Counted from the stretch's first letter, positions 1,180-47,979 are shown. The stretch is DNA of 64,000 bases from Spartobacteria bacterium (GCA_009930475.1 RZYC01000001.1:17062-81061), one strand, 5' to 3'. The notes: generated from the letters alone by a model not told the origin. A program made the numbers and translations.

Positions 1180-1273
1180 TTTTACTCCCCCCCCTGTGCA
1201 CCGTGCACAATAAATAGTATAGTGACAGTCACATATTAGTTGACACGAGTTCGTGAGAATGTATATTGGCTGC

Positions 1274-2272
1274 ATGAGAAGAAAACGAATAAAACGGGCG
1301 CGGTTGGCTTATTACCACTGCATGACACGTGTGGTGGGACGTCAGATGTTGCTCGGGTCGTCGGAGAAGGAACACATGCGTGTCCTTATTCGGAAGGTCG
1401 AGGGGTTTACAGGAGTCCAGGTGTTGACGTATGCGCTGATGACCAATCATATCCATTTGCTACTGAAGGAACCCGAGAGGGATACGGTGGTGGATGAGGA
1501 TGTATTGGTGGAGCGGATGAGGTCGTTGTATTCTGAGGAGGAAATGGAAGAGGTTCTGCTGCGGTGGGCGGATTGGCGAGCGCAGGGGAACAGGATTGCA
1601 GTGGAAGAGGATATGATGCGTTACAGAAGGCGAATGCATGATATCAGTGAATTTATGAAGACGTTGAAGCATCGGTTTTCATTTTGGTATAACCGCCGCA
1701 ATGATCGTAAGGGGACGCTGTGGTCTGAACGTTTTAAGAGTGTCCTCGTTGAGGGCGGAGATGCGTTGAGAACCGTGGCGGGGTACATTGAGATGAATCC
1801 GGTACGGGCGGGTTTGGCCTGTGATCCGTCGGGGTATTTGTTTTGTGGCTTGGGCGACGCAGCGGCCGGGTCGGTGAAGGCACGTGAAGGAATTATGGAA
1901 TTGGTGGTGCAGAAGAATACTTCTTTTGGGACGCATGTGGGCAAATCTTGGTGTGTTTTGTCTGCCGCCTATTTTGATGATGTGTTGATGTATGGTGGGA
2001 CATGCCCTGCCATGCATGATGCAAGCATGAAGGATGGCGGGGGGTGCCTCCAAATACAAGAGGCTGAACTATTGTATCGTAATCGTTTTTTTTCTGATGG
2101 ACAAGTTATTGGTAGCAAAAGTTTTGTTGAGGAGTTTTTTGCAGAAAACAGGGATTATTTCGGGTCACGCCGCACGTCAGGCGGTCGCAGAGTTAAAGGA
2201 ATTACACGCGGCCTGTATGCGATACGGGATGTCGGACGCATTGTCGACAAACGAAACAAACAGCTTTCGTAA
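1274..2272 (+). mobile_element. RAYT/IS200-like Y1 HUH transposase paralog 1 (about 332 aa, with a conserved C-terminal extension)
   Basis: It carries the HUH motif TNHIHLLL and the RAYT-type tyrosine motif AGYIEMNPVRAG. The start was set at the ATG (MRRKRIKR…) that matches the three other paralogs; the ORF track begins at an upstream GTG at 1253. The C-terminal block …RNRFFSDGQV.G…FVEEFF..NRDYFG…LYAIRDVGR is shared by all four copies. Confidence 0.75.
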
Positions 2273-3435: not shown

Positions 3436-3540
3436 GTGGGGCCGGGCCCTATGCAACGAAAGCGGGTGAACCACGTCAGGACCGGAAGGTAGCAGCGTTA
3501 AATCATGTCTTCCGGGTGCCGTAGGTAAACCTGGCCCCCT
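3436..3540 (+). ncRNA. ffs: Small (4.5S-type) signal recognition particle RNA
   Basis: It contains the conserved domain IV motif GUCAGGACCGGAAGGUAGCAGCG. The 5' GGGGCCGGGCCC pairs with the 3' …CUGGCCCCC, and a T-run follows (3540-3546). It lies immediately upstream of dnaX, as in many bacteria. Confidence 0.65.
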
Positions 3541-5900: not shown

Positions 5901-6950
5901 TCAGCACCAATGTCCCAGATCACGAATGGTATACAAGCCGTCCCACCCTCCGCGTATTTTTCGTGCTCCGGTTTTTCGTGCCGGAGCAAAATAATCCCTG
6001 TTCTCATCAAAGAACTGCTCCACAAACTCCTGAGAGCCGAAGACCTGTCCATCTGAAAAAAAACGACTCCGACATTGTAGTCGTTCGAACGAAGAGATTT
6101 TCATCCGTTTCTTTAATTTGTTTGGAATCATATTCTTATCAAGAAACGCGAAATTAGGGTTTTTACATAGCTCCTCGTACATCAATACCCGCTCCCAGTA
6201 AACATTCAAAGCCGCCGTCCATGAACCCACCTTGTCAGTCGCTCGAACCGTGTTATCCAGCTGTTTCACCCCCGATGCCAGCACCACAATCCCTCTTTGT
6301 GCGGAAAGGCTCCCGCCCATGGCCTCACCTAGCCCGCAAAAACGATATTTCTTGGGATCATCGACCATCCCCGCTCGAACCGGATTCATTTCTATATATG
6401 CCGCCATAGTACGCAGTGCCGTCCCATCCTCCACCAGTACGCTTTTAAAGCGTCGTTCCCACAAGGTTCCGCAACGGCCAGCTCTGCGATTGAACCAGCA
6501 GGAGAATCGCTGTTTCACCTGCTTCATAAACTCACTGATATCGTGCATTCGAACAAGATATCGCTGCTTATCCTCCGCAATAAAAGCTGTTAGCCCCGCC
6601 TGATCCCATGCTTGCCATCTACTACAAATTTCATCTACATCCTCTTTAGAATACAAACAGCGCAATCGATCTATCAACTGCGCATCCGTAATCAAAAGGA
6701 CGTCCGCGCGGTCTGGTTCCTCCAGCAGTAGATGGATATGATTTGTCATCAGCGCATACGTTAGAACGCGTACTCCGGAGAACCCCTCAACCCGTCGAAT
6801 CAAACGGCGCATGTGTTCTTTTTCCACAGATCCCAGCAGCATATCCCGATTCACAATGCGCGACATGCAATGATAGTAGGCCAAATGATCGCGTTTTATT
6901 CGTGTTTGTTTCATGAATCGATACAAGCATGGGAACATATATAAATGCAA
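5901..6950 (-). mobile_element. RAYT/IS200-like Y1 HUH transposase paralog 2
   Basis: MKQTRIKRDHLAYYHCMSRIV… carries the HUH motif TNHIHLLL, the tyrosine motif AAYIEMNPVRAG, and the conserved C-terminal block …SRFFSDGQVFGSQEFVEQFFDENRDYF…LYTIRDLGHWC. REP clusters flank it at 5453-5540 and 7813-7903. Confidence 0.75.
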
Positions 6951-13486: not shown

Positions 13487-15664
13487 TCAGGATGAAATGG
13501 TGCGGCGAATCATTTGTTCCAGCTGACGAATATCTCTGATGTCGCGAATTCTTGGCGGAACGAAAAGGAGCGGTATTCTATTCTCTGCCCGCCAGAGGTT
13601 GAGCCGCTGTTGAAAAAGCAGCCCCCAACCGGGCAAACGATTTTCTGTCGCCACAATCAGGGTGTCCTCCGGCAGGTAATGCAGCGGGGCTCCATGATAA
13701 AGCTGGGTGGCCAGTAATTCCAGCCAATGGCACACCACCAGCAGTGATGTCTGCGGCTGGAGCTGCATCATCACCGCAGCATGAATCCAGTTTACCGGTT
13801 CGAGGATGATCAGGCCGTGTCGCGCTGAATCCCATTGGTTTTCGGCCAAAAAAGCACGGATATCGCGTTCGGCACAGGCTGGCGCATCCCATGGATGATC
13901 GGTCAGGGCCACGGAGCGGTCTTTCTGCAGGATTTCCACATAGGGAAAGACCTGCGCCTCCCATCGTAATCGCATGGATCGGGGTTGGTTTTCCGGGGAA
14001 ATAGATTCCAGAATACCGGCCAGATCGCTGTTATTTTGTGCGATACGCCGACATCCGGCATGGTAAAACGCACTGAAGATATACGGGGAGTATTCCGAAT
14101 GGGCAGAACGATCCGGACTGGGCGATACTTTTGTAAGAGCTCGGTCCACATCTTTTTTTACGTCTTCGCACAACGTATGAACGAACGAATAAAACTGGTT
14201 CAAATGCCGTTTTATCCCGACAGGCTGCATATCCTTCCATTCTGGTAACGGGGCATACAGCTGTTCGGCCGCCTGGCGGATAAATGTAAAAAGTGGATGA
14301 TTGGGAGACTTAATAAACAAATCCCGTTCTGCCCGGAGATAGGCTCGCACGCTTTCTTCCGAATCCTTATCCAGCGGAGCATCAGCCACATCGGTTAGAT
14401 CAGCAAGGCATCCTGCAATGCGTTCGTACTGGCGCAGATTCACCAGCATCTGATGGAGTGCGCTGTTGTCGTAGGCCTCCGTATAGGTTGTGGTGAACAG
14501 GGCGTGTTTCAGCGAGGTATCGAAGGAATGCGAGCGCAGCGGTTTGTATTCCGTGTGAGCAATGAGGGCGCCGCGATCCGAGGCGTTATAAAAAACAGGC
14601 CGTTGTTCTGCAGGCAGCACCGACGGGATGAAATCCATGTATTGATTCAGTGCATTCCACAGATCTACCAGATTATGTGTGGCATAAACCGCACTTCCAT
14701 TGTAGCCCGGCAACTTGCTCAGGCCATGTTGTTCCGCATCATCAGGACGCTGTCCGCCGGGGTATAGTGCTCCTGTTTCGGCCAGGGAACAATCTTGTCC
14801 TATCATAAAAATGGTGGAACAGCCCAGACGCACTGCGGTATCCAATGCGTGAATACTGACGGTTCGGCCGATGGTCATGGGCAGCAGTGGAATACGCAGG
14901 GTGTTGAGCATCTCATTGATGGGCATAAATGAGGAGGCACTCCATAAAATGTGACGAAAACGTGCCGGCACCGAAGAATCGACATCCGGAACGGTCACCA
15001 GTAAACTATCGGGCAGGCGAAGATCCTGCTGCCAATGCCGTCCGGCCCGGTTGTCGTTTTCTACAACAATATCCGGCGTGATATCAGCCGCCATGAGGGT
15101 TGGAACAGCATGTCCCACAGCAATGATCACGGCCTGACTGGAACGATGAATATGGCGAATATCCGGCAGTGCTTCTTTAAGGGAGGGGCCGGCCGCGCAG
15201 ACAATAGCACAGAGATGGTCGCGGGGAACCAGCCGGGTGCTGCGATTGGTGAACATCAATGGTAAATTTTGCAGGGCACAGCGCAGTCGCGTCATGCTTT
15301 TTACCGCATTTCCGGAACGGGCGGACAGGGCCTGTTTGATGGTCTGCTGCATCAGGGGCAGCAGGGTTTTAACCTGTTCTGACAAGACATGAGGAGTAAT
15401 CAGACGCAGATCTTTGTATCGCTGGTAATCCCCGATGGCCGCGACCAACTGATTGCGCCACTGCTGCATGGGATCAACCGTGATCCAGCGCGTATTTTGC
15501 GGTAAATTCCGGGGAACCGTTACATCTGTCGCCATGCACAAATAGATGACAGGAATCTGCGTCGGCAGTTGTTTACGAAGTTCAGCCAGATCCGCGAAGC
15601 CTTGTTCGCCCACACTGATAATTAATTCATTTTCACCGATCGACTGCGAATCCTGTCCTGTCAT
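13487..15664 (-). CDS. Motility-accessory-factor-like (Maf / DUF115, MptE-like fold) protein
   Basis: The 725-aa product contains a DUF115-like core: AIVCAAGPSLKE…AVIIAVGHAVPTLMAADITPDIVVENDNRA…HALDTAVRLGCSTIFMIGQDCSLAE. An AAGGAA RBS precedes the start. Confidence 0.45.
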   Translation of the reverse strand: MTGQDSQSIGENELIISVGEQGFADLAELRKQLPTQIPVIYLCMATDVTVPRNLPQNTRWITVDPMQQWRNQLVAAIGDYQRYKDLRLITPHVLSEQVKTLLPLMQQTIKQALSARSGNAVKSMTRLRCALQNLPLMFTNRSTRLVPRDHLCAIVCAAGPSLKEALPDIRHIHRSSQAVIIAVGHAVPTLMAADITPDIVVENDNRAGRHWQQDLRLPDSLLVTVPDVDSSVPARFRHILWSASSFMPINEMLNTLRIPLLPMTIGRTVSIHALDTAVRLGCSTIFMIGQDCSLAETGALYPGGQRPDDAEQHGLSKLPGYNGSAVYATHNLVDLWNALNQYMDFIPSVLPAEQRPVFYNASDRGALIAHTEYKPLRSHSFDTSLKHALFTTTYTEAYDNSALHQMLVNLRQYERIAGCLADLTDVADAPLDKDSEESVRAYLRAERDLFIKSPNHPLFTFIRQAAEQLYAPLPEWKDMQPVGIKRHLNQFYSFVHTLCEDVKKDVDRALTKVSPSPDRSAHSEYSPYIFSAFYHAGCRRIAQNNSDLAGILESISPENQPRSMRLRWEAQVFPYVEILQKDRSVALTDHPWDAPACAERDIRAFLAENQWDSARHGLIILEPVNWIHAAVMMQLQPQTSLLVVCHWLELLATQLYHGAPLHYLPEDTLIVATENRLPGWGLLFQQRLNLWRAENRIPLLFVPPRIRDIRDIRQLEQMIRRTISS

Positions 15665-15687: not shown

Positions 15688-16809
15688 CTAAAGTAACTCT
15701 GCGATCACCGCATTGCTTATGAAATAGGCTTCGGGGGCGAGCCTGATCCCGTCCGGATTAGCAGTTATCATGCCGAGCGCGATCATTTGTGATAAACCTT
15801 CCCCGCATAACGTCTTCAGTGAAATCCCTGTTTTTTCACGAAACACGTCATAGGAAAGTCCCTCCATCAAACGCAATCCGAGCATGAGTGTATCTCTTGC
15901 AAATTGCTCTGGCGTATCGATTTCCTCATCAATACGCGGCGATGAACCGTTTTGTACACAGGCTGACCAGCGGGGCAGATCACGCATATTTCCCCAGCGG
16001 TGTCCCTTCCAGTGCGAACAGGCCGCCGGTCCGCATCCAAGCCATTGTCCATTCTGCCAATAGGTCACATTGTGCCGGCAGGCACGATCCGGGAGGCTGA
16101 AATTCGACAGTTCATAGTGTTCATACCCGTTATCACCGAGTTCCTGTCGCAGCATATCATATTGATCCCGCGTGATATCATCGTCAGGCCGGGCACAATG
16201 TCCCGTGTTTATAGACCGTTCCAAAGGCGTTCCCTGCTCAACACTCAACGCATAGGTTGCCACATGGGCGGGCTGCAGCTTCAGCATCGCTGTTACATCC
16301 GAGCGGCACTCCTCCAGCGACTCCCCAGGCAGTCCATACATCAAATCTAAATTAAAATTATCCAGACCGCAGGTCGTAAATACATCAATGGTCTCCAAGG
16401 TGTCACGCACCGTATGAATACGGCCTAGTGCCTGTAATACGCCGTCGCGCATAGATTGGGCTCCGATAGAAACACGATTAATCCCCGCCTGCACCATCAA
16501 CGCTGCCTTGTTCGCTGTCATCGTGCCGGGATTGACTTCACAGCTCCATTCCGTCACGGCATCCGGTTCAATGGTGTCCCTGATCATCGACAGCAACTCT
16601 TCCAGGTGCTCCACGGAAAGCGAAGACGGGGTTCCGCCACCCAGAAAAACCGTTTGAACCGTCAGCGGTGCCCATGAATCCAGTTCGCAGCGCAAGGCGC
16701 GTAAATAATCCGTGATAATTCGATCATTCTGCGCAGGACAGGAATAAAAATCACAATAAGCGCATTTCTTTACACAAAAAGGGACATGGATATATAACGA
16801 TGCAGTCAT
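15688..16809 (-). CDS. hemW: Radical SAM heme chaperone HemW (HemN-like, oxygen-independent coproporphyrinogen-III oxidase family)
   Basis: It begins MTASLYIHVPFCVKKCAYCDFYS with a CxxxCxxC radical-SAM cluster motif, and contains the GGGTPS motif and a HemN C-terminal domain. Confidence 0.85.
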   Translation of the reverse strand: MTASLYIHVPFCVKKCAYCDFYSCPAQNDRIITDYLRALRCELDSWAPLTVQTVFLGGGTPSSLSVEHLEELLSMIRDTIEPDAVTEWSCEVNPGTMTANKAALMVQAGINRVSIGAQSMRDGVLQALGRIHTVRDTLETIDVFTTCGLDNFNLDLMYGLPGESLEECRSDVTAMLKLQPAHVATYALSVEQGTPLERSINTGHCARPDDDITRDQYDMLRQELGDNGYEHYELSNFSLPDRACRHNVTYWQNGQWLGCGPAACSHWKGHRWGNMRDLPRWSACVQNGSSPRIDEEIDTPEQFARDTLMLGLRLMEGLSYDVFREKTGISLKTLCGEGLSQMIALGMITANPDGIRLAPEAYFISNAVIAELL

Positions 16810-16909
16810 GCGGTGAGTAAGCGTGCAAGAAGCGTTGCTGTCAATCTATTCCTTCTTGCACGCCTGTGTACAGCTCTGTACATTAGCGGAAACCTGGGAG
16901 ATTTTGATT

Positions 16910-17647
16910 ATGGACATGTTGGCACTGGAACATATTCGGGCGGTGTTGAGCCGTTTGGAAGAAACGATTATCTTTGGGCTGATTGAGCGGGCGCAGTTCG
17001 CTCAGAATAAAGTCATCTATCAACCCGACGGCGTCGGCCCGCTCCAGGGGAAAAGCCTTTTCGGCTTCATGCTGTACGAAACAGAATGCACCCACGCCAA
17101 AGTGCGACGCTATACCAGCCCGGACGAACATCCTTTCAACAGCAATCTGCCGGAGCCCATGTTAACCCGGCTGACCTTTTCAGACAGTCCGCTGTATCCC
17201 AATGATATTAATATCAATGACGAAATTCTGCCGATATATCAGGACAGGATCATACCCCGAATCTGTGATCAGGGCGATGACGGACAATACGGCTCCAGCT
17301 CTGTCAACGACGTACAATTGATTCAGTCCATATCCAAACGTATTCACTACGGGAAATTCGTGGCCGAAAGCAAATATCGCGCCGACCCCGCGCCTTTTGA
17401 TGCCTTTATTGCCGCTCGCGATGCCGATGCGATCATGTGCCACATCACCTTTGCCGCCGTTGAAAAAGCCGTCCTGGATCGCGTCTATATGAAGGCCTGC
17501 ACCTACAGCAAAGAGCTCAACGAAACCCGTATCAATTATAAAGTTGATCCCGAGGCTGTCCGCGATATTTACGCCAAATGGATTATTCCCATGAACAAGC
17601 AGGTTCAGATTCGCTACCTATTGGGGAAACAATGCGTATCGCAATGA
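16910..17647 (+). CDS. Chorismate mutase, AroQ class, eukaryotic (Aro7-like) type
   Basis: Motifs match yeast Aro7 across the protein: LALEHIRAVLSRLEETIIFGLIERAQFA, RRYTSPDEHPF, KRIHYGKFVAESKY and VQIRYLLGK, at about 246 aa. The ATG at 16910 was chosen; the ORF track starts upstream at 16823. Confidence 0.7.
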   Translation: MDMLALEHIRAVLSRLEETIIFGLIERAQFAQNKVIYQPDGVGPLQGKSLFGFMLYETECTHAKVRRYTSPDEHPFNSNLPEPMLTRLTFSDSPLYPNDININDEILPIYQDRIIPRICDQGDDGQYGSSSVNDVQLIQSISKRIHYGKFVAESKYRADPAPFDAFIAARDADAIMCHITFAAVEKAVLDRVYMKACTYSKELNETRINYKVDPEAVRDIYAKWIIPMNKQVQIRYLLGKQCVSQ

Positions 17648-17715
17648 TCCCCTAATTTAATAAATTATTATCCAGATGGTAACGTAACGAAGGGAGTTTG
17701 TTGCTCCGGTTGTCT

Positions 17716-18117
17716 TCAAAATGCGCAGCTCAACAAGCGTTTGCAATTCGCGCTGAAGTGTTCTCCGCGAAATATCGGAACAGATCGATTGGTAAAAAGG
17801 CGTTTGAAATCATATCCCGCACAGTACAGGCACAACGTGGAAAGCAAACGGGAAACCCGTCTATTGCCATCCCGAAACGGATGAATATGAACCAGCTCAA
17901 ACTGGGCAATGCCGCTTTTCAGTACGGGATACACATCATCTTTTTTATTCAGTCATAGTATCAGTTCCTGCAGCAGTTCCGGAACCTTTTCCGGTGCCGG
18001 AGGCGTATAAATCACCTTGCCTGTGGACTGGTTGACCACATAGTTCTGTTTGTGACGATACTCGCCGGGTGATGCACCCCCGCCAGCAACCGCTCGGATT
18101 GTTCCAGCGTCAGTTGT
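17716..18117 (-). pseudogene. Fic/Doc-family (AMPylase-like) pseudogene remnant
   Basis: The minus-strand translation contains the Fic motif [14 protein letters not shown] (G-to-R within the HPFx[D/E]GNGR consensus). Upstream pieces sit in two other frames (…GEYRHKQNYVVNQSTGKVIYTPPAPEKVPELLQELIL* and LTLEQSERLLAG…), so the gene is frameshifted and N-terminally truncated. Confidence 0.6.
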
Positions 18118-18120
18118 GTG

Positions 18121-18152
18121 CCTTCAATGATTGGAACTTTCGATGGTTGGTT
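18121..18152. repeat. Truncated REP-like remnant
   Basis: CCTTCAATGATTGGAACTTTCGATGGTTGG contains one near-complete REP core plus half of a second. It lies between the Fic remnant and the hppA stop. Confidence 0.45.
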
Positions 18153-20433
18153 ACTGAATCATGCCCAGCCAGGACTGTACAATGGGCGAGAATTTCACAA
18201 CGACCGGGGCAAAGACGACACTGACCATGGTCATCAGTTTGATCAGGATGTTCAGGGATGGTCCGCTGGTATCTTTGCAGGGATCCCCCACGGTATCACC
18301 TACGACACTGGCTTTATGGGTGTCAGAGCCTTTGCCTCCGTGATGCCCTTTTTCGACATATTTTTTCGCATTGTCCCAGGCTCCACCTGCATTGTTAAGC
18401 ATCGTGGCCAGCACAAAGCCGGAAACCAGTCCGCCTGCAAGCAGTCCCATCACTCCCGCAACACCTAGAATCAGACCGGTTGCCACAGGGACGATAATGG
18501 CAAGCAGTGACGGCAGAACCATTTCACGCTGCGCACCGGTGGTGGAGATCGCAACACAGCGGGCATAATCCGGCTTCTGTGTTCCCTTCATGATGCCGGG
18601 GAAGTCTTTGAACTGGCGACGAACTTCTTCAACCATTGCTCCGGCTGCACGTCCCACCGCCTTCATGGTCATCGCACAAAAGACAAAGGCCATCATGGCA
18701 CCGATAAACATGCCGCACAGTAGCAATGGATTCATAATATGTAATTTGTATACATCAATAAAATCAGTCAGTTCCATATGCAGCACCGGCTTGGTAATGC
18801 CGAGCATACTGGTGACATCCGGCATTTTGGCGACCCATATTTTTACTTCTTCGATGTAGGCGGCCAGCAGAGCCATGGCTGTGAGTGCTGCAGAACCGAT
18901 TGCAAAACCTTTTCCTGTGGCGGCGGTGGTGTTGCCAAGGGAATCCAGCGCGTCAGTGCGTTCACGCACTTCATGCGGCAGATGAGCCATTTCCGCGTTG
19001 CCGCCGGCATTGTCAGCAATAGGGCCATAGGCGTCGGTAGCCAGAGTCACGCCCAATGTGGCCAGCATACCCACAGCAGCAAAACCAATACCGTAAAGAC
19101 CCATGCCGATTTCATGGAAACCACCGGCGAAACCGAAGGCACAGAGAATACCGATGACAATGGTGATCACCGGAGCTCCTGCGGAATACATTCCCGTCGC
19201 CAACCCGTCGATGATGGTTGTAGCAGGACCCATACGGGCCTGATCAGCGATGCCTTTGGTGGGGGCATATTCATCCGATGTATAATATTCTGTTGCCTGA
19301 CCAATGACCACGCCAGCCATCAGACCGGCAATCACCGAACCGACAATGCCCCAGCTCGGAACCAGTCCTAAAAGTTTCAACACGATCAGGATCAGCACAA
19401 TGGCCACAGAACTGCCGAGCGTTCCGGTCAAAAGGGCGCGTAACAAGTTCTTCTGCGTGGCCCCTTCACGGCAGCGCACCACCATAATCCCGCCAATGGA
19501 AATGATCGTCCCGATACCCGCAACAATCATGGGAGAGGTAACCAGTCCAATGCCTAGCTTTGCATCGCCCGCCTGTGAGGCCACAGCCGCACCCAGTGCT
19601 GCCGTTGCCAGAATCGATCCGCAATAGGATTCATAAAGGTCAGCCCCCATACCTGCAACATCGCCGACGTTATCGCCGACGTTATCAGCAATCGTCGCCG
19701 GATTGCGCGGATCGTCTTCCGGAATGCCTGCTTCCACTTTCCCCACTAGGTCAGCCCCGACGTCCGCCGCTTTGGTATAAATACCACCACCGACACGGGC
19801 AAACAACGCCTGCGTAGAGGCACCCATCCCAAAAGTAATCATTGTCGTTGTAATCTGAACCAGTTTACCCGCCATTGTGCAGCCGGCCGGAACCAGCGTC
19901 AATCCGAACAGACTTAATCCCTGCGCCATGTTTGCGGAGGTATAGATAACTTTATCGAGGAACAGATACCAAATACAAATATCCAGCAGGCCAAAACCTA
20001 CCACGACCAGTCCCATCACAGCACCAGACCGAAAGGCGACCTGCAGACCTTCATTTAAACTGCTTCTGCAGCCGTTGGCTGTGCGAGAGGATGCCGCCGT
20101 CGCGGTTTTCATTCCTATATATCCGCATAGACCGGAAAAGAATCCGCCTGTGAGAAAGGCCACCGGGACAAAGGGGTTTTCAATATCAAACCAGGCAAGC
20201 GCACTCAGGATCACAAACAAAACGAAAAACACAAAGCCCACGACTTTGTACTGACTATATAAATAAGCCATTGCTCCCTCGCGGACATATCCGGCGATGG
20301 ATTTCATTTCCTCTGTTCCCTCGTCCGCCTCCAGCATTTTTTTATAGAAAACCCATGCAAAAATTAAGGCAAGCACAGACGAGACAGGTGCAATCCACCA
20401 GGCAGCGGGGATGACAGACATTGATTCATTCAT
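18151..20433 (-). CDS. hppA: Membrane-bound proton (or sodium)-translocating pyrophosphatase
   Basis: The 760-aa polytopic protein has the H+-PPase motifs [19 protein letters not shown] and DNVGDNVGD, and about 16 TM helices. Confidence 0.9.
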
Positions 20434-21386: not shown

Positions 21387-22202
21387 GTGACGGAAAATCC
21401 CATGGAACAGGTTCGTATTGTTTTAGTAGATCCGCTGTACAGTGGAAATGTCGGTGCGATCTGCCGGTGTATGGCCAACTGCGGGGTCCACGATCTGGTC
21501 ATTGCAGAAGGGTCGCGCGATATGGATACGGTGGACTGCCGAAAACGTGCCATGCATGCCGAAACCATCATGCAGAACCGCAGCGAGTGTTCCACGCTGG
21601 CGGAAGCGGTCGAAGACTGCATTGCGGTGATAGGGACAACGGCACGCAAAGGACTCTACCGCGCCCATTCAAAAACCATGCGCGAGTGGGCTCCTGATCT
21701 CGTTCAGCTTGCTGCAGCGGGCAGGGTTGCCCTTGTTTTCGGAACCGAGGACAAAGGCCTGAGTAATGATCACCTGCTGCTGTGTACTCATCTGGTACAG
21801 ATTCCTTCACATCCTGATTACAGCTCGCTCAATCTGTCGCACGCAGTGATGATCTGCCTCTATGAGATGTATGTGGCCAGCGGACATTTTGAACCGAGTG
21901 AAGAAATTTCCCCTCCTGCCCCGAGTGGCCAGCGAGAACGCCTCCTTATGGTATGGCGCGAAATGCTGCAGGATATCGGGTTCATGAATGAGGAGAAATC
22001 AGATCACATGATGCAGGGAGTCCGCCGCATCTTCACCCGCGACAACCTGACCCTTTCCGATGTCAAAATCATGATGGGTGTGGCAAGGCAGTCACAATGG
22101 AATGCGATGAAAGTAAAGGAACTCAAAACACAGCTTTCCGCATTGCAGGCGGAACTGGCAGCCGCGAAGAGCGCAACCCCGGATAAGGCCGCCGATGAAT
22201 AA
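21387..22202 (+). CDS. SpoU/TrmH-family RNA 2'-O-methyltransferase (TrmJ-like) with a C-terminal coiled-coil extension
   Basis: RIVLVDPLYSGNVGAICRCMANCGV is the TrmJ/SpoU N-terminal motif, and the SPOUT fold is present. A GTG start with an ACGGAGG RBS was chosen, with an alternative ATG at 21402. Confidence 0.65.
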   Translation: MTENPMEQVRIVLVDPLYSGNVGAICRCMANCGVHDLVIAEGSRDMDTVDCRKRAMHAETIMQNRSECSTLAEAVEDCIAVIGTTARKGLYRAHSKTMREWAPDLVQLAAAGRVALVFGTEDKGLSNDHLLLCTHLVQIPSHPDYSSLNLSHAVMICLYEMYVASGHFEPSEEISPPAPSGQRERLLMVWREMLQDIGFMNEEKSDHMMQGVRRIFTRDNLTLSDVKIMMGVARQSQWNAMKVKELKTQLSALQAELAAAKSATPDKAADE

Positions 22203-23229
22203 GCAGCCATGGTATTATTTCACAGGCATAGCACTGGTACTCCTGGCCTCTACGTTTTCCTGCCTGGCGATGGAACCGCAGGTAGAAAATATCGACGCAT
22301 TTATCACCGTGCTGCAGTCCCGGTTCACCCCGGAGAAACCGACGGTCTGCATGAACTACGATGTAACTTATCGCTTTCTGGGCATACGACTCGCACGCAT
22401 AGCCCGTGCGCAGCTGGAAGCCACTGAAGGGGCCTGGCAAACGCCCGATAACCGGGAAATCCCTGCGTGTATGATGATTATGACATTAAAATCATGCGAC
22501 CTGGGCACGCGTCAACGGGAGAAAAGTCGCGTGTGGCTTAATGACAGGATCGTCTCTGTTGTTACCATGCCCTCGCTCGATACGCTTTATTATATCAAGG
22601 ATACCGATGAGTATATCCGGCCCATACTGGGTCAAAAACGCGATGTTCATTTCTACTCCGTTTATAATCTGGAAGGAAATGAACTGGATTACTACGAGAA
22701 AAACTACGTTAAAAATACGGTCAAGACTCAGATCGAAGGAGCCAGTGCATTGGCGGGGCAGGGTAGAGAAGTGGCTGAAGTGCTCCGCATGCTCTCCGAG
22801 GTGTATCATGGCCTGCGTCCCATGGTTACAAAAGACTCCGATTACCGATTATTGATCAACTGTGATGGCAAAACGATCCCCTTTGCCGCTGAAACACAAA
22901 AAGACGAACTGCGGGTGCTGGGCGAAACATGCTCGACTGTTTATGTAGATGTCGAACTTGCTGAAGAAGCTCCGAAAATAAAGAATGCACGCGATTTTGA
23001 AATGTGGGCGACTTCCTTTAAAGATGCATCCATTTTATCTCAGGATCCCGTTCTCATTGATCTGTCGAACAACACGCTAGAGTGGGCCATGACCCCGCTG
23101 GTGGCCAATTACGGCATGGGAATAGGCTATATTCATACGGAAATATCCGAACTGAAAGCCATATTGCATACCCGTTCTGAAGACGTTGCATTCATAACAA
23201 AAACAAGGAGTTCGTACGATGCTGAATAA
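22195..23229 (+). CDS. Hypothetical secreted protein
   Basis: A signal peptide (MNKQPWYYFTGIALVLLASTFSCLA) is present. No family was recognised. The stop overlaps the start of the downstream flavin-reductase-like gene. Confidence 0.45.
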   Translation: MNKQPWYYFTGIALVLLASTFSCLAMEPQVENIDAFITVLQSRFTPEKPTVCMNYDVTYRFLGIRLARIARAQLEATEGAWQTPDNREIPACMMIMTLKSCDLGTRQREKSRVWLNDRIVSVVTMPSLDTLYYIKDTDEYIRPILGQKRDVHFYSVYNLEGNELDYYEKNYVKNTVKTQIEGASALAGQGREVAEVLRMLSEVYHGLRPMVTKDSDYRLLINCDGKTIPFAAETQKDELRVLGETCSTVYVDVELAEEAPKIKNARDFEMWATSFKDASILSQDPVLIDLSNNTLEWAMTPLVANYGMGIGYIHTEISELKAILHTRSEDVAFITKTRSSYDAE

Positions 23230-23801: not shown

Positions 23802-24965
23802 TTACATCATACTCAGCAATGACGAGTTCATCGTCGTCATGGTGGCTCTCATCGCTGCTTCGTAGGCCGTCTGCTTCTCGCTGAGTTCCATGGCGGCCTT
23901 TGCTATATCGATGGATTCTTCGTCTTCCAGACGAATATTCAGCTGATTACTTTTGGTGAGCAGCACCGATTTATTAGCACTGACACGTTCTTCATAGGCA
24001 CCCAGACGCGTAAGCACATCAATCACCTGATCGGTATCCTTCTCGATGCAGGCCTGATGCTCCTGCGTGACTTTCAAATCACCCGTTCCTGCATCGGTAA
24101 AACTCAAAGCTATTCCGGCTCTGGCATTTTCGAGTGAATCGGCGAGTTTAATCTCTGTGTCAGATATTCGAATGGCATAGTATGTGGTATCGGCATCCAG
24201 TCCCGACGGCAACGTTCCGTCTGTAGAAAGACTTACTGCACCGCCCGTAGCGTAGATATCAGAAACCGTGAGCGTGCCGGTCGCTTCATCTGCCGTCGCC
24301 GCGTCCTCCTGTGCTAAATTCGTTCCTGCGAGTAATCGGTCACGAATCAGAATCAAATCGGCAAATACATCATTATCATTTGTTTGAAAAACGCCGTTAT
24401 CGCCCGTCATGTCACTGCCGACCAGTGTTCCCGGTACGTAGTCGTTTTCGCCTATTTCCACCATGCGGGTCTGATCGCTGCCCTGATAATTCACTTCACT
24501 GATACGCCCTTCATCATCACGAACGATTTCATAGGCCGGCGTATCCTGTCGCAATCCGGAATAAATATAACTTTCTCCGGGATGTGTATTGGCATTACCG
24601 ACGAGACTTTCAAGGTATTGATCGACCTCTTCGCCGAGTGCAATCAGGTCGTTGGGATTTTTCGAGCTGTCGCCCCCCTGAATCGTTATTTCAGAAACAC
24701 GCTTGAGTTTATCATGCACGTTCTGAAGATTCGCATCCATGGTGAGCAGATCGCCATCAAGCTGCGTTGTATTTTTATTGAATTGTGTGATCCGGCTCTG
24801 CTGCGTATACATACTCGAAATTCGGCTGTACGCTGCCGGATCATCCGAGGCATACTGAACTTTTTTACCGCTGGAAGTCTGCTCCTGCAAGCGATACAGT
24901 TCGTCCCTGTTTTTAAGCAGATACGACGTCATCGTCGATGTGTTCATTGAGTCCGTTATTCGCAT
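23802..24965 (-). CDS. flgL: Flagellar hook-associated protein 3 (FlgL)
   Basis: The N-terminus MRITDSM…SGKKVQYASDDPAAYSRISSM corresponds to the FlgL segment MRxSTxM…GKRVxxPSDDP. YIYSG corresponds to YIFAG, and the C-terminus is flagellin-like and helical. Confidence 0.55.
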   Translation of the reverse strand: MRITDSMNTSTMTSYLLKNRDELYRLQEQTSSGKKVQYASDDPAAYSRISSMYTQQSRITQFNKNTTQLDGDLLTMDANLQNVHDKLKRVSEITIQGGDSSKNPNDLIALGEEVDQYLESLVGNANTHPGESYIYSGLRQDTPAYEIVRDDEGRISEVNYQGSDQTRMVEIGENDYVPGTLVGSDMTGDNGVFQTNDNDVFADLILIRDRLLAGTNLAQEDAATADEATGTLTVSDIYATGGAVSLSTDGTLPSGLDADTTYYAIRISDTEIKLADSLENARAGIALSFTDAGTGDLKVTQEHQACIEKDTDQVIDVLTRLGAYEERVSANKSVLLTKSNQLNIRLEDEESIDIAKAAMELSEKQTAYEAAMRATMTTMNSSLLSMM

Positions 24966-26378: not shown

Positions 26379-26488
26379 AGCGAGCTCCTCACGGGTTACA
26401 CCTTTCTGATTACTGCCATAACGAACAAAAGCTAACAAAATAATTCAAACAATAACAAGTCATGGTGCGAAATAATACAAAAACAGCA

Positions 26489-26516
26489 TTGACTCTACGA
26501 TCTCGGTCTATATATT
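26489..26516 (+). promoter_or_regulatory. Candidate sigma-70 promoter for tRNA-Ala
   Basis: TTGACT, then a 16-nt spacer, then TATATT, lying 24 nt upstream of the mature tRNA 5' end. Confidence 0.35.
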
Positions 26517-26540
26517 TACGCCATATTTCACACAACGAGT

Positions 26541-26616
<76 letters not shown>

Positions 26617-26907
26617 CTCGTTTAACTTACACATTGCCAGCCACTTAGCAAAACAAAGACAGTCCCGAAAAACGCCACTTCTAACGGTAACTCATAACGC
26701 GTGTCATTTTGTGCTATGCTGTTTTTCCTGTAATTTTGCCCCTGATTTAATGCTTTTTTCACCTATGCAGAAATTTAATTTAAATTATTTTCAATTTCTT
26801 TTGATGTCATTAATAGCCTGGATATATTTAGACTTATTTTTCCTTTTTGCATTTGCTGGAGGACTGATATACACTCTCACCCAGTCATCGAATATGGAGA
26901 AAATCAC

Positions 26908-27864
26908 ATGTGCACAACTATACGACTTGGTATCAGTTCATGCCTGATGGGCGAAAAAGTTCGTTACGACGGACAACACAAACTGGATCATTACCTGCGG
27001 GATGAGCTGGGATCATTTGTTGAATATATTCCGGTTTGCCCTGAGGCCGAATCGGGGTTCAGTATTCCACGGGAGGCCATGCGTTTGGTGGGCGATATCA
27101 GCAATCCCAGACTTTTCACTGTGAATTCCAAAGTTGATGTGACGCAAAAGATGACGCAATGGATTGCGATGCGTATCAAGCAACTGGAGGGAGCGCGACT
27201 GGATGGCTATATTTTCAAGTCGAAGTCTCCCAGCAGCGGAATGGAACGGATCAAAGTCTACCCCAGCCCCGAAGGCGGAATGCCGACCAAAAAAGGAGTA
27301 GGCCTCTTTGCCCGTGCTTTTATGGATCACTTTCCTACTCTTCCGGTAGAAGACGAAGGACGCATGCATGATCCTGTACTTCGCGAAAATTTTATCGAGC
27401 GTGTTTTTGTACATGCGCGATGGCAGACGTTTTTGGGTGGTAAGCCAGACAAGGCCGGATTGATTGCTTTTCATCGCCGTCACAAATTGTTGCTTATGGC
27501 CCACGATGTGGCGTCCTATCGATCCATCGGAAAAATGGTGGCCCAACTGTCAAAAGCTGACGTCGATACCTTTTTAGTTGAGTATATTGCCTTGCTTATG
27601 AAGGGCTTGTCACACAAGGCAACGTTGGCGAAAAACACCAATGTTCTTCAGCATATTATGGGATATTTCAAAAAGCAGTTAAGCCATGACGAAAAACAGG
27701 AAGCGGTGGAATTGATTCAGCAGTACCATGATGGACTTATACCCCTAATTGTCCCCGTTACGTTGCTGAATCATTATGTGAGAAAATACCAGACAGAATA
27801 CCTCCTGGATCAGTACTACTTACATCCCCATCCAGCAGAACTGAAACTGCGAAATCATGCGTAG
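26908..27864 (+). CDS. DUF523 (TudS-like, Cys-rich) / DUF1722 fusion protein (YbgA-like)
   Basis: The N-terminus MCTTIRLGISSCLMGEKVRYDGQHK is typical of DUF523. The product is 318 aa with a helical C-terminal half. A GGAGA RBS precedes the start. Confidence 0.6.
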   Translation: MCTTIRLGISSCLMGEKVRYDGQHKLDHYLRDELGSFVEYIPVCPEAESGFSIPREAMRLVGDISNPRLFTVNSKVDVTQKMTQWIAMRIKQLEGARLDGYIFKSKSPSSGMERIKVYPSPEGGMPTKKGVGLFARAFMDHFPTLPVEDEGRMHDPVLRENFIERVFVHARWQTFLGGKPDKAGLIAFHRRHKLLLMAHDVASYRSIGKMVAQLSKADVDTFLVEYIALLMKGLSHKATLAKNTNVLQHIMGYFKKQLSHDEKQEAVELIQQYHDGLIPLIVPVTLLNHYVRKYQTEYLLDQYYLHPHPAELKLRNHA

Positions 27865-29388: not shown

Positions 29389-30402
29389 ATGAGAAGAAAA
29401 CGAATCAAGCGAGACCACCTAGCGTACTATCACTGCATGTCGCGCATTGTGGGGCGAGGGATGTTACTGGGCGATGTGGAGAAAGTGCACATGTGCCGGC
29501 TTATTCGCCGTGTTGAAGGCTTTACAGGGGTTCGCGTTCTCACCTATGCGATCATGACGAATCACATTCATCTGCTGCTGGAGGAACCAGATCGTAATGA
29601 GATACATCAGATGACTCACGAAGAGCTTGTGAAGCGATTGCTGTATCTGTACTCGCAAGATGATGTCGACGAAATATGTGCTCGCTGGCGCATGTGGGAG
29701 AGGGAAGGCCTTCTGGCCCTGGTGACCGAGGACAAGCAGCGTTATTTGGTACGGATGCATGATATCAGTGAATTTATGAAACAGGTAAAACAGCGGTTAT
29801 CCTGCTGGTATAACAGAAATAACGGACGGTACGGGACGTTGTGGGATCGTCGCTTTACGAGCGTGCTGGTGGAAGATGGTGCGGCACTGCGCACGATGGC
29901 GGCGTATATCGAAATGAATCCGGTGCGGGCAGGAATGGTGGATGACCCGAAAAAGTACCAGTTCTGCGGATTTGGAGAAGCCATGGCCGGTGTAAAACGG
30001 GCGATGTGCGGCATTATGAAGCTGGCCAGCGGACTGGATTGCATGGATGATGCGGTGCGGGCTCGGGAACGGGCGGATTCATGGGATGTTGCGTCGTCGA
30101 TCTACTGGGAACGGATTTTGATGTACGATGAAGTAACGAAAAACCCTCATTTTGCGATGCTGGATATGGATATGATTCCAGATAAATTGCGTAAACGAAT
30201 GAAAATATCTGATTTTGAACGACTGCGATGTCGAAGTCGCTTTTTTTCCGACGGGCAAGTCTTTGGTTCGCGTGACTTTGTGGAAGATTTTTTTGAGCAT
30301 AATCCTGATCACTTTGGAATCACCCGCAAAACAGGTGCTCGGAAAATACGCGGAGGGTGGAACAGCCTGTACTCCCTTCGAGATCTGGGAAACTGGTGCT
30401 GA
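29389..30402 (+). mobile_element. RAYT/IS200-like Y1 HUH transposase paralog 3
   Basis: MRRKRIKRDHLAYYHCMSRIV… carries the HUH motif TNHIHLLL, the tyrosine motif AAYIEMNPVRAG, and the C-terminal block …SRFFSDGQVFGSRDFVEDFFEHNPDHF…LYSLRDLGNWC. It is about 75% identical to paralog 2. Confidence 0.75.
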
Positions 30403-37470: not shown

Positions 37471-39297
37471 TTATTCGGGCGTCTTGAGGGGAAGCCGAAT
37501 ACTGAAGGTGGTTTTGCCGGATTTGCTGGTGCAGCTCATAAGACCGTCGTGAGATTCGATGATGTGCTGGCAGATGGACAGGCCGAGGCCGGTATTGGTT
37601 TTGCCGACTTTGGTACTGAAAAAGGGATCGAATATTTTATCCATCACTTCAGGGGGGATGCCGCTGCCATTGTCAGTGACGGTAATTTCGGCGTATTGAC
37701 CGTCATTCGGACAGGTGGCGGCGATGCGGATGGTTCCACCTTCGGGGACGGCATCCCAGCTGTTGACAATGAGGTTCATCAGGACCTGTTTGAGTTTATT
37801 TTCCTGTCCGGCAATGAAGATGGCTTCGCCGGGGTCACGGATGATATTGATGTTTTTCTGCCGCAGTTTGTGGTTGAGAAGGATGAGGATATCGTCGATG
37901 AGCGGCTGGACGGCGACGCGGCGCATAACGGGTATGCGGTTGATTTTTGAAAAGGACAGGAGGCTCTCTACAATACCGGCGATGCGTTTGAGTTCGGCGT
38001 CCACCTTTTCCAGTTTTCGGAGAGAATCTTCGTCCTGCATTTTCCGGCGCATGATGGCGACATAATTACTGATGATGCCCAGAGGGTTATTGATTTCATG
38101 AGCAACACCGGCGGCCAGTTCGGCGATGGATTCGATTTTTTGTGAGCGAAGCAGGTATTCATTAACCTGACGGTCACGCGTGATATCTTCGAAGATGATA
38201 ATGGTTCCGAGATAGCGGTCGTTTTCGTCTTTAAAGGGTCCGATGTGAATGCGCAGGTATTTATTATCGCCATGTTTGAATTCGTCCCATGATTTCTCTG
38301 TTCGCTCATCGATGGCCTTCATCAGTTCGGCCGCCTGTTCCGTGATTTCTCCGTCGGCATCTTTGGGAACGATCGCATCCATCGTCAGATTCATGATTCG
38401 GTCCTGATCGATTTCCAGGATTGCGGATGCGGCATAATTGGTAAGATAGACATGGTTCTTTTCGTCGAGAATCACGATGCCTTCAGGGATATTTTTAATG
38501 ATATCTTCGTTGTATTTTTTGAGCAGAAACAATTCCCGGTTGTGATGTTCCAGTTCTTCGCGCGACATAACAAAGGAATAGGTGAGCTTGATAAGCTTCA
38601 CCTTATCGATATCCTGAATTTCCTCGGTTCCGATATTACGTCCGTTCTGCATGATGGTGACACGATCGGCGAGGTCAAATATCTCGTTCATGTTGTGCGT
38701 AATATAAATCACACTGCGTCCCTGGTGGCGCAGACCGAACAGCAGTTTATAAACGCGCTCCATTTCCACCGGCGTAAGCTTAAAGGATATCTCATCGAAA
38801 ATGATCACTTCAGGATGATTAATCAGCACTTTTGCCAGTTCCACCATATGCTGATCGGCCTGCGGCATCAGGCTGAGAGGGATATTGAGATCGAGATCGA
38901 TTCCTAATGAATCCAGCAGCTGCTGCGCTTCTTTCTCCATGACACGCCGTCGCACGCCACCCCACCAGTAGCGCTTAAAATATCCGGCATACATATTCTC
39001 CACCGCATCCAGCGCATTGATCACGTTATTATGCTGATAGAACATGCTGATGCCGTCGCGCATGGCGGTATGCGGCGTGAAATAAGGCATATCAACGCCG
39101 CGATAATAGATCAGACCTTTTTTCATGCGCACTGCACCGCTGAGCACCTTGACGAGGGTGGATTTTCCGGAACGGTGTTCGCCGACAAGACCGTGAATTT
39201 CACCTTTCCGAAGATCAAAATCCACGCCCTTCAGCACCTGTGTGGTGCCGTAATTCACATGAATATTGCGCATCTGCACAATAAGGTCGGATGTCAT
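37471..39297 (-). CDS. Cytoplasmic sensor histidine kinase with an N-terminal ABC-transporter ATP-binding domain (NBD-PAS-HisKA-HATPase_c fusion)
   Basis: Residues 1 to about 240 carry the Walker A motif GEHRSGKST, a Q-loop, a degenerate signature LSLMPQADQHMVELAKVL, the Walker B motif VIIFDEIS and the H-loop YITHNMNE. This region is most similar to the N-terminal half of CUT2 sugar ABC ATPases such as the neighbour at 45117-46607. A PAS-like region follows, then an H-box AHEINNPLG, then HATPase_c (…DNGSGIPPEV…GLGLSICQ…). No TM helices are present. The start overlaps the response-regulator stop (ATGA). Confidence 0.8.
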   Translation of the reverse strand: MTSDLIVQMRNIHVNYGTTQVLKGVDFDLRKGEIHGLVGEHRSGKSTLVKVLSGAVRMKKGLIYYRGVDMPYFTPHTAMRDGISMFYQHNNVINALDAVENMYAGYFKRYWWGGVRRRVMEKEAQQLLDSLGIDLDLNIPLSLMPQADQHMVELAKVLINHPEVIIFDEISFKLTPVEMERVYKLLFGLRHQGRSVIYITHNMNEIFDLADRVTIMQNGRNIGTEEIQDIDKVKLIKLTYSFVMSREELEHHNRELFLLKKYNEDIIKNIPEGIVILDEKNHVYLTNYAASAILEIDQDRIMNLTMDAIVPKDADGEITEQAAELMKAIDERTEKSWDEFKHGDNKYLRIHIGPFKDENDRYLGTIIIFEDITRDRQVNEYLLRSQKIESIAELAAGVAHEINNPLGIISNYVAIMRRKMQDEDSLRKLEKVDAELKRIAGIVESLLSFSKINRIPVMRRVAVQPLIDDILILLNHKLRQKNINIIRDPGEAIFIAGQENKLKQVLMNLIVNSWDAVPEGGTIRIAATCPNDGQYAEITVTDNGSGIPPEVMDKIFDPFFSTKVGKTNTGLGLSICQHIIESHDGLMSCTSKSGKTTFSIRLPLKTPE

Positions 39298-40616
39298 AAC
39301 GCCATATCCAGCTTTTTCATACGGTTGTACAGCGTACGACGACTGATATTCAGGATATCGGCGGCCTTCTGTTTGACACCGCCGCTGCGTTCCAGTGCAT
39401 CTTCGATCATGGAACGACTTAACCGTTCGAAGGCATTTTCATAGGACTCCAATTCATCCTGCTGAAGCAGTTTGGTATATTGCGCGGCCAGATGTTCCGG
39501 CTCAATCAACGGCTTTTCACAGAAAATAACCGACCGCTCAATACAGTTCTTGAGTTCACGGACATTGCCCGGCCAGGTATGGACGCGGATGATCTCCTCC
39601 ACAGAAGGTGAGACGCCCTGAATATTTTTGCCATACACCTTGTTGTACTGCTCGATGAAATAACGGGTCAGCATCATGGCATCATCGGTGCGGTCACGCA
39701 GTGGCGGCAGGTGCAGCGTAATAACGGACAGCCGGTAATACAAATCCTCACGAAACCGCTGGTCTTCGATCAATTCATCCAGATCCTGATGGGTTGCAGC
39801 AATGATGCGGATATCGGTCTTGATGGTTTTATTTCCCCCGACTTTTTCGAATTCCTGTTCCTGAATCACCCGCAGAATTTTTGCCTGGGTTTTCAGACTC
39901 ATATCGCCGATTTCATCCAGAAACAGCGTGCCGCCATTGGCCATCTCGAAGCGCCCAATGCGTTCTTTTATCGCGCCGGTGAAGGCACCTTTTTCATGAC
40001 CGAACAATTCACTTTCCAAGAGTTCGTCGGGAATGGCGGCGCAGTTGATCTTGATAAACGGGGCATCGCTGCGCCGGCTCATCTGCTGGATCGCTCTCGC
40101 CACCAGTTCCTTCCCCGTTCCGCTTTCGCCGGTAATAAGAACCGGAGCATCGGTGGGGGCGGCCTTATCGAGCAGCGACAATACTTTTCTCATCTTCGCA
40201 TCATAAGTAACAATGCCGCCCTGCGGCAGATGAACTCGACCGCCTGCCTGCACCGCCTGTCGGGCATGTTCCCCTATTTCCTGCAGCAGCTGATCGAGAT
40301 CAATGGGTTTGGTATAGACGTTGACGGCACCATAACGCATGGCAAGGACGACATCCTGCACAGTGGGATATCCTGTCATCATCGTTACCGGTAAATCCGA
40401 GGCGATGGACTTGATTTTCTGCAGCAGTTCCACGCCGCCCATTTCAGGCATACGAATATCCAGCATCACCATATCGTAGTTGGTTACCGCGATTTTACCC
40501 AGTGCTTCGGACGGGTGCATGGTCCAGTCCGCGATCATGCCTTCGGATTCCAGCAGTTCCGAAAGCGAGCGGCACATTTCTTCTTCGTCATCCACAATAA
40601 GAATGCGGTAATTCAT
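39294..40616 (-). CDS. Sigma-54-dependent response regulator (NtrC family: REC-AAA+-HTH)
   Basis: The REC domain has a phospho-acceptor Asp (MNYRILIVDDEEE…VMLDIRMPEMGG). The AAA+ sigma-54 activator domain has GESGTGKE, GAFTGA and ESELFGHEKGAFTGA. A C-terminal Fis-type HTH is present. A GAGG RBS precedes the start. Confidence 0.85.
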   Translation of the reverse strand: MNYRILIVDDEEEMCRSLSELLESEGMIADWTMHPSEALGKIAVTNYDMVMLDIRMPEMGGVELLQKIKSIASDLPVTMMTGYPTVQDVVLAMRYGAVNVYTKPIDLDQLLQEIGEHARQAVQAGGRVHLPQGGIVTYDAKMRKVLSLLDKAAPTDAPVLITGESGTGKELVARAIQQMSRRSDAPFIKINCAAIPDELLESELFGHEKGAFTGAIKERIGRFEMANGGTLFLDEIGDMSLKTQAKILRVIQEQEFEKVGGNKTIKTDIRIIAATHQDLDELIEDQRFREDLYYRLSVITLHLPPLRDRTDDAMMLTRYFIEQYNKVYGKNIQGVSPSVEEIIRVHTWPGNVRELKNCIERSVIFCEKPLIEPEHLAAQYTKLLQQDELESYENAFERLSRSMIEDALERSGGVKQKAADILNISRRTLYNRMKKLDMAL

Positions 40617-40664
40617 AGTTAAAACCTCAATTTGAGACACAGATTAACGCTTTTGTGCCCCTTT

Positions 40665-43631: not shown

Positions 43632-43654
43632 ATCCGCCATCCTCCTTATGTGTG

Positions 43655-43692
43655 CAAAAAAATCAACCGGTTCGGAACGATGTCCGAACCGG
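43655..43692 (-). terminator. Rho-independent terminator after sugar ABC operon 1
   Basis: A hairpin CCGGTTCGGAACGATGTCCGAACCGG is followed on the minus strand by a U-run (A-run at 43655-43664 on the plus strand), 16 nt after the permease stop. Confidence 0.45.
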
Positions 43693-43707
43693 CTCCCGGC
43701 ATTAATC

Positions 43708-47873: not shown

Positions 47874-47970
47874 AGTGACAGACACATAAATATTGACTTG
47901 CGATAGGGATTGTATACAGGGAAAGAGTGACAGACACATAAATATTGACTTGCGATAGGGATTGTATACA
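47874..47970. repeat. Tandem direct repeat (2 x 45 bp, 7-bp spacer) immediately upstream of RAYT paralog 4
   Basis: AGTGACAGACACATAAATATTGACTTGCGATAGGGATTGTATACA occurs at 47874-47918 and again, identically, at 47926-47970. The unit is related to the region upstream of paralog 1 (…AGTGACAGTCACATATTAGTTGACACGAG…, 1221-1250). Confidence 0.8.
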
Positions 47971-47979
47971 TTGGATGGC

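Follow-up and report, generated by a model that had tools for sequence, protein, structure and literature searches.

A yeast- and plant-type (AroQ-beta) chorismate mutase gene in a Spartobacteria genome

How does a chorismate mutase of the yeast and plant type come to be in a bacterial genome, and what may it do there? The profile of this enzyme, TIGR01802, has been described as "found commonly in eukaryotes" (2025, PMC12607891), and the plant chorismate mutase as "probably of eukaryotic origin" (2024 review, PMC11439500). We have studied one such gene in 64 kb of DNA from a Spartobacteria bacterium; we call this whole stretch the window, and all positions are counted from its first letter. 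A preliminary description, made from the sequence alone, had already proposed that the gene codes for an Aro7-like enzyme. The gene and the features next to it are the following:

15688–16809, minus strand: hemW (radical-SAM haem chaperone), TIGR00539 with 272 bits against a cut-off of 205
16821–16832 and 16852–16863: inverted repeat of 12 nt without mismatch, GCGTGCAAGAAG/CTTCTTGCACGC, its arms 19 nt apart
16866–16883: second, smaller palindrome TGTACA-N4-TGTACA, which folds as RNA into a 7-bp hairpin; it is flanked by the 12-nt repeat on one side and by the ribosome-binding site on the other
16896–16900, plus strand: Shine-Dalgarno-like GGGAG, 9 nt 5' of the ATG at 16910, read from the sequence
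16910–17647, plus strand: chorismate mutase of 245 aa, monofunctional, AroQ-beta (yeast/plant-type); Spartobacteria bacterium (Verrucomicrobia group)
17693–17707, plus strand: weak terminator-like hairpin from a consensus scan, 46 nt past the chorismate mutase stop
18151–20433, minus strand: Na+-translocating pyrophosphatase, on the other flank of the chorismate mutase gene

The reading frame goes from the ATG at 16910 to a stop codon at 17645–17647. It has 246 codons when the stop is included; the preliminary description gave the correct frame, but its protein of 246 aa is one residue too long. A mechanical list of ORFs starts the same frame earlier, at a GTG in position 16823. The ATG at 16910 is the likely start, because 28 homologues start at this position, the NCBI and Logan gene calls both give 245 aa, and GGGAG is found 9 nt upstream. 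NCBI already contains an identical protein, encoded on a contig of 242,920 bp and entitled 'MAG: chorismate mutase [Spartobacteria bacterium]'. The gene is real and its public annotation is already correct: it is a bacterial addition to a known enzyme class. No signal peptide is visible when the N-terminal sequence is read by eye. The hairpin at 17693–17707 fits a monocistronic gene; this is weak evidence, since the scan found 5 such sites against 1.9 expected. The gap that separates the chorismate mutase gene from the pyrophosphatase gene also contains a 72-aa ORF with a Fic motif (17716–17934, minus strand), which matches positions 60–93 of the 93 in Pfam Fic (E 1.3e-07). It looks like the remnant of a truncated Fic/DOC gene.

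Profile, pairwise sequence, predicted fold and functional residues all agree with the proposal of an Aro7-like chorismate mutase of eukaryotic type in a bacterial genome. TIGR01802 ("CM_pl-yst", an NCBIfam model of equivalog level) scores 271.1 bits, its cut-off being 170.9, and aligns positions 1–244 of its 247 with residues 4–239 of the protein. Pfam CM_2 covers the C-terminal half only, residues 134–233 of 245, with 40.9 bits. A search of all PDB sequences gives nine matches; each is a chorismate mutase from a plant or a fungus, and the alignments span the whole length. Among plants we find Physcomitrella 5w6y (E 8.8e-58), Arabidopsis CM1 4ppu (1.1e-56) and maize 6hjw (7.4e-54), among fungi Candida 7rj1 (7.4e-48) and yeast 5csm (6e-45); the full-length alignments to the solved plant and yeast enzymes have E values from 8.8e-58 to 1.5e-39. 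Four motifs had been quoted in favour of this assignment: IIFGLIERAQFA (residues 20–31), RRYTSPDEHPF (66–76), RIHYGKFVAESKY (144–156) and IRYLLGK (234–240). All four are present, and they survive both in the alignment with the TIGR01802 profile and in the full-length matches to the solved plant and yeast enzymes.

The fold was predicted with AlphaFold2 from an alignment of 29 sequences (pLDDT 90.5, pTM 0.90). According to DSSP the model is all-helical, with ten helices of at least four residues. Foldseek compares it with the AroQ-beta structures with TM values of 0.83–0.90 throughout: 0.90 for AtCM1 (4ppv), 0.89 for 3csm and 0.83–0.89 for yeast ScCM as a whole. The predicted fold is thus superposable on ScCM and AtCM1, as expected for an AroQ-beta enzyme. 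The label AroQ-gamma used in the preliminary description has to be replaced: in the chorismate mutase literature AroQ-beta is the 12-helix enzyme of the yeast type, and AroQ-gamma is the secreted type represented by *MtCM of Mycobacterium (PMC7762937, PMC4281200).

Its statement that the protein is neither a short bacterial AroQ nor an AroH is borne out: the NCBIfam models of bacterial chorismate mutases reach 12–13 bits, with cut-offs of 77–158, and the AroH families have no match. An AroQ-gamma enzyme, secreted and with about 170–190 aa, is rejected by the 12.2 bits of NF006741 (a model of 194 positions, cut-off 158) and by the lack of a visible signal sequence. In AroQ-alpha enzymes CM_2 occurs once, with about 90 aa, and either stands by itself or is joined to PDT, PDH or DAHPS. 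In our case NF004925 gives 13.1 bits against 77 and the CM_2 match leaves most of the 245 residues aside. For AroH, the trimeric alpha/beta barrel of Bacillus subtilis, no Pfam or NCBIfam match appears at E values up to 1, and the model contains helices only. The AroQ-alpha domain of the E. coli P-protein (EcCM, about 90 aa) has the same catalytic logic of Arg, Lys, Glu and Gln, which we find here in residues 134–233. EcCM is a single three-helix domain which forms an intertwined dimer, with neither an N-terminal regulatory half nor an effector site in its chorismate mutase domain.

The prototypes of AroQ-beta are Aro7 of Saccharomyces cerevisiae (ScCM, 1csm–5csm) and Aro7p of Candida albicans (7rj1). 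They share the 12-helix architecture with the window protein (TM 0.83–0.90), at 35–39% identity. We have carried the yeast numbering over to the window protein by HMMER alignment. The residues found by alignment and by a residue census are:

R10, R144, K155, E185, N229, K230 and Q233 of the window protein: catalytic residues
R66, R67, G128 and S129 of the window protein: effector-site residues

The catalytic set is complete with one change. R10, R144, K155 and E185 align with R16, R157, K168 and E198 of yeast, Q233 occupies the place of Glu246, and the place of Thr242 is taken by Asn229. Two further yeast residues are replaced, Asn194 by Phe181, as in plants, and Thr145 by Val. In the yeast enzyme the transition-state analogue is bound by salt bridges from R16, R157 and K168 to its two carboxylates and by E198 at its hydroxyl (PMC5986790). 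The position of E246 is Gln in plants and corresponds to Gln88 in EcCM (PMC7762937).

The effector site is also kept, as it is apparent from the alignment: R66/R67 and G128/S129 stand at four yeast positions. These are the positions of the yeast effector residues R75, R76, G141 and S142, reportedly described by Straeter et al. (1997) and by Schnappauf et al. (1998). With the four catalytic residues R16, R157, K168 and E198 they are common to yeast Aro7 and the window protein. G128 is also the equivalent of Gly213 in AtCM1; the offset of 62 was checked by setting the C-terminal end of the chain, which has 278 residues, against the full protein length of 340 aa. Gly213 is kept in the regulated plant enzymes and lost in the unregulated cytosolic ones (PMC11171525). 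R66 falls on the specificity position of AtCM1, which is Gly149 in that enzyme and Arg in moss, in yeast and in the window protein.

By its sequence the protein is close to the regulated plastidic enzymes of plants (AtCM1 4ppu/4ppv, Physcomitrella 5w6y, maize CM1 6hjw), with 44–47% identity over the full length and TM values of 0.86–0.90. It has the same Gln, Phe and Val as these enzymes in the positions of yeast Glu246, Asn194 and Thr145, and the Gly213-Ser effector motif is kept. It differs from them by the absence of a transit peptide, by the Asn in place of Thr242 and by its bacterial host; unlike AtCM1, it has no acidic insertion ahead of the last helix.

Seven residues do not vary in 63 related bacterial loci: R10, R67, G128, S129, R144, K155 and E185. 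Positions 229 and 233 covary. In the 63 loci the pair is Asn/Gln in 34 cases, Thr/Glu in 28 and Thr/Gln in one; among 110 other representatives, 66 have Thr/Glu, 36 Thr/Gln and seven Asn/Gln, and 102 of them have Thr in the position of yeast Thr242. Thr/Glu is found in Lentisphaeria, Chlamydiota, Bacteroidota, Spirochaetota and most eukaryotes, Thr/Gln in plants. The Asn/Gln pair marks the main clade of the PVC lineages (Planctomycetes-Verrucomicrobia-Chlamydiae), to which the window protein belongs. We did not find in the literature any characterised enzyme with this pair. One related locus, L058, has an odd version, Thr-Cys-Ala-Val-Glu, where Cys replaces Lys230, a residue conserved elsewhere.

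How common are such enzymes in Bacteria? We scanned one genome per species in 185,579 prokaryotic species with a sequence pattern, a method which gives a lower bound. About 90 species genomes match, and each of the 80 listed here is a MAG. Their distribution is:

Verrucomicrobia including Spartobacteria: 15
Victivallales: 11
Other Lentisphaerota: 22
Kiritimatiellota: 5
"PVC group": 5
Chlamydiota: 2
Planctomycetota: 1
Euphemobacter/Erginobacter: 2
Spirochaetota: 7
Reichenbachiella (Bacteroidota): 1
Unclassified: 9

A database search with the window protein gives 2,168 clusters (at 90% identity) with E values up to 1e-5. The best 120 of these 2,168 are 51–64% identical to it, and those with a name belong to Kiritimatiellae, Lentisphaerota, Verrucomicrobiota, "PVC group", Ca. 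Auribacterota and Ca. Euphemobacter. The class had been called rare in bacteria. As a global figure this is right, about 0.05% of the species as a lower bound, but within the PVC lineages the enzyme is recurrent, and in metagenomes there are over 2,000 clusters at 90% identity. The bacterial branch is known almost solely from uncultured organisms. A full-text literature search, with most subscription journals outside its coverage, found no account of bacterial AroQ-beta enzymes. Besides the clade of the window protein there are a second bacterial group (Lentisphaeria, Chlamydiota and Reichenbachiella) and a group of Spirochaetota. They agree with this clade in family, in length and in the invariant residues of the catalytic and effector sites, but they are only 45–52% identical to the window protein and have the Thr/Glu pair instead of Asn/Gln. 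In similarity they rank beside the red algal enzymes.

The genes around the chorismate mutase are ordinary bacterial ones: hemW, the Na+-pyrophosphatase, flagellin and ABC transporters. The gene is divergent from hemW, as the preliminary description had it, with a spacer of 100 nt in between. A Pfam search of 45 ORFs, together with the Pfam hits of the gene calls around the chorismate mutase, found in the window no other chorismate mutase and no pheA, tyrA or aro gene. A conserved neighbourhood or operon is rejected as well: when the ORFs around the 63 related loci are clustered, the commonest neighbour family is present in just five of them. When the 99 genes directly beside these loci are assigned to Pfam, no family occurs in more than three of them, and aromatic-pathway families are absent among those listed. 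Ten recurrent neighbour clusters could be annotated (acetate kinase, solute-binding protein, two-component system, thioredoxin and similar); they are unrelated housekeeping genes, none of them from the aromatic pathway. Adjacency to hemW is absent from all 63; it is incidental, without a functional link to the chorismate mutase. With neither aromatic-pathway genes nearby nor conserved neighbours, the genomic context therefore gives no independent support for a function.

The spacer contains the 12-nt inverted repeat. A perfect repeat had indeed been noted there, but it was placed at 16833–16871, about 10 nt away from its true position, and its length was given as 10 bp. This repeat may be an element of regulation, either the operator of a dimeric repressor or a leader hairpin, which would control both divergent genes together. 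It lies 47 nt 5' of the start codon, inside the sole spacer available for both promoters, and none of 630 shuffles of 150-nt upstream regions reached a repeat of 12 nt or more. Against this, the folding energy of the RNA is no better than in shuffled sequences (z = -0.05) and Rfam gives no match, which discards a riboswitch, leader or stable RNA of known type; the repeat occurs only once in the window. Nothing similar is found upstream of the 63 homologues, so that a family-wide operator is also rejected, and five of those upstream regions contain unrelated repeats of at least 11 nt (one run of N was excluded). Even the nearest relative of the window protein, 63% identical, has a different neighbourhood. 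Both the repeat and the adjacency to hemW are specific to the window locus, and we consider a regulatory role of the repeat rather unlikely. In the same promoter region, the palindrome TGTACA-N4-TGTACA (16866–16883) is a possible protein-binding site or operator.

Four genes for Y1_Tnp/IS200-like proteins are present in the window, at 1253–2272 (plus strand), 5901–6950 (minus), 29389–30402 (plus) and 47962–48942 (plus). They are paralogues of 326–349 aa with 52–74% identity and the domain in N-terminal position: an expanded family of long proteins within 64 kb. One of them has a sub-threshold match to the REP-associated tyrosine transposases (59 bits, the cut-off being 80). The 12-nt repeat might have been a dispersed REP element tied to these four genes, but it is present in a single copy in the window and therefore it is not a REP element.

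Other features of the window deserve a mention. Beside hemW there is a gene for an MptE-like protein of 725 aa (13487–15664, minus strand), which weakly resembles PseD, a protein of flagellin modification, and a flagellin gene is found 8 kb from it (23802–24965, minus strand). These two genes suggest a motile organism with a glycosylated flagellin, which is unusual for the label Spartobacteria. A protein of 608 aa (37471–39297, minus strand) has an unusual architecture: an ABC-transporter ATPase domain in residues 22–169 is followed by PAS, HisKA and HATPase_c. It adjoins a sigma-54 response regulator (39294–40640) and a multi-HAMP chemoreceptor of 1,028 aa (40665–43751). There are also a bacterial small SRP RNA (3440–3539, plus strand, 62 bits) and a tRNA gene (26541–26613, plus strand). 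The latter overlaps a mechanical ORF of 161 aa (26462–26947), which for this reason is probably not a gene. Finally, an ORF of 344 aa (22195–23229, plus strand), flanked by genes for a SpoU methylase and for a flavin reductase, has no match in Pfam or NCBIfam.

What the enzyme does can be proposed from its family membership, its predicted fold and the conservation of its residues. The presence of the catalytic and effector residues leads us to infer an allosterically regulated, cytoplasmic and monofunctional enzyme. It would convert chorismate into prephenate at the point where the pathway to Phe and Tyr separates from that to Trp. The C-terminal half would form the four-helix catalytic pocket of AroQ enzymes, in which the transition state would be anchored at both carboxylates by R10, R144 and K155 and at the hydroxyl by E185, with N229 and Q233 on the side of the ether oxygen. 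The N-terminal half and helix 8 would build a regulatory interface in a putative homodimer, where an aromatic amino acid could bind between R66/R67 of one subunit and G128/S129 of the other. Trp would activate the enzyme and Tyr and/or Phe would inhibit it. A housekeeping role is assumed. We consider it quite likely that this is a stand-alone, feedback-regulated AroQ-beta chorismate mutase of the cytoplasm, an old and native resident of its bacterial lineage.

Two other explanations have to be weighed against this one. The protein could be an accessory or specialised enzyme, for example one which provides prephenate for a secondary pathway, either redundant with a canonical bacterial AroQ-alpha domain encoded elsewhere in the genome or shifted in specificity by the change from Thr to Asn. 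The Asn229/Gln233 pair speaks for it, as it is so much more frequent in the bacterial loci (34 of 63) than in the other representatives (7 of 110), and so does the fact that genes for Phe and Tyr are unlinked in every locus examined. It has against it a score far above the cut-off of TIGR01802, a model of equivalog level, and the absence of biosynthetic-cluster genes both in the window and among the neighbour families listed for the related loci. Furthermore, the residues which bind the carboxylates and the hydroxyl and those of the effector site are conserved across divergent bacteria, as expected for a regulated branch-point enzyme of primary metabolism. On balance an accessory role appears improbable. 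Much less credible still is a recent transfer of the gene from a plant or an alga, or a contamination of the assembly with eukaryotic DNA. Such an event would agree with the best matches among solved structures, which are plant enzymes (moss 8.8e-58, Arabidopsis 1.1e-56). But the gene is found in a contig of 242,920 bp with tight bacterial flanks, has no intron and is preceded by a ribosome-binding site of bacterial style. Its GC content, about 0.49–0.50, is close to the 0.50–0.55 of the flanks, and therefore its composition shows no anomaly and no sign of recent acquisition. Its closest relatives are 51–64% identical and every one with a name is a MAG of the PVC group, whereas the plant structures stay at about 44–47%. 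Context, GC content and closest relatives effectively refute this explanation.

If the gene is an old resident, as we prefer, where does the family come from? We searched exhaustively 1.84 billion representatives at 50% identity. There are 1,413 matches with E values up to 1e-3, 225 of them up to 1e-30. A handful of short sequences of bacterial type come first in the ranking and long proteins follow; the long ones which carry names are eukaryotic: Protostelium (49% identity), an MMETSP transcript, Porphyra and Vitrella. In pairwise comparisons the window protein is 45–52% identical to the other bacterial subgroups, 44–49% to the amoebozoan, red algal, chromerid and plant enzymes and 37–39% to the fungal ones. 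The Lentisphaerales protein of locus L058 reaches 56–57% with a pair formed by a red algal and an MMETSP sequence. By these values the bacterial subgroups are as distant from each other (45–52%) as from eukaryotes (44–57%). With a query of the Lentisphaeria type we find Rhodosorus (54%), Porphyridium (55%), Galdieria (55%), a chytrid (51%) and an MMETSP transcript (58%), which rank among sequences of Kiritimatiellota, Verrucomicrobiota and Spirochaetes.

Neighbour-joining trees were also calculated. With 173 taxa, 61 of the 63 bacterial sequences fall in one clan, with a bootstrap of about 0%. With 72 taxa the eukaryotes are interleaved with the bacterial subgroups: plants and fungi are each recovered in 200 of 200 bootstraps, eukaryotes as a single group in none of 200. 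A pairing of fungi with spirochaetes in the latter tree is probably due to long-branch attraction. We conclude that the bacterial AroQ-beta sequences are old and diverse, and that no specific eukaryotic donor lineage is evident. The equal divergences, the absence of eukaryote monophyly in all 200 bootstraps, the lack of a donor lineage and the red algae found among sequences of the Lentisphaeria type lead us to a tentative suggestion, which we regard as possible rather than probable. The family may be ancient in bacteria of the PVC group and in spirochaetes, with a full effector site for Trp and Tyr, and may have passed from them to eukaryotes; or else several exchanges between the domains may have taken place.

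The interest of this gene is found in the evolutionary question and in the Asn/Gln variant, rather than in the window locus, a correctly annotated gene of the housekeeping type. An enzyme class which is routinely called eukaryotic has a substantial bacterial branch, with its catalytic and allosteric residues kept. This branch offers compact allosteric chorismate mutases, free of introns and transit peptides, for enzymology and engineering, and the Asn/Gln pair is a natural Thr242Asn/Glu246Gln variant of the active site. The bacterial branch also bears on the mosaic origin of the shikimate pathway in eukaryotes: a bacterial origin of the family or a repeated exchange, if true, would overturn the statement that the plant enzyme is "probably of eukaryotic origin" (PMC11439500).
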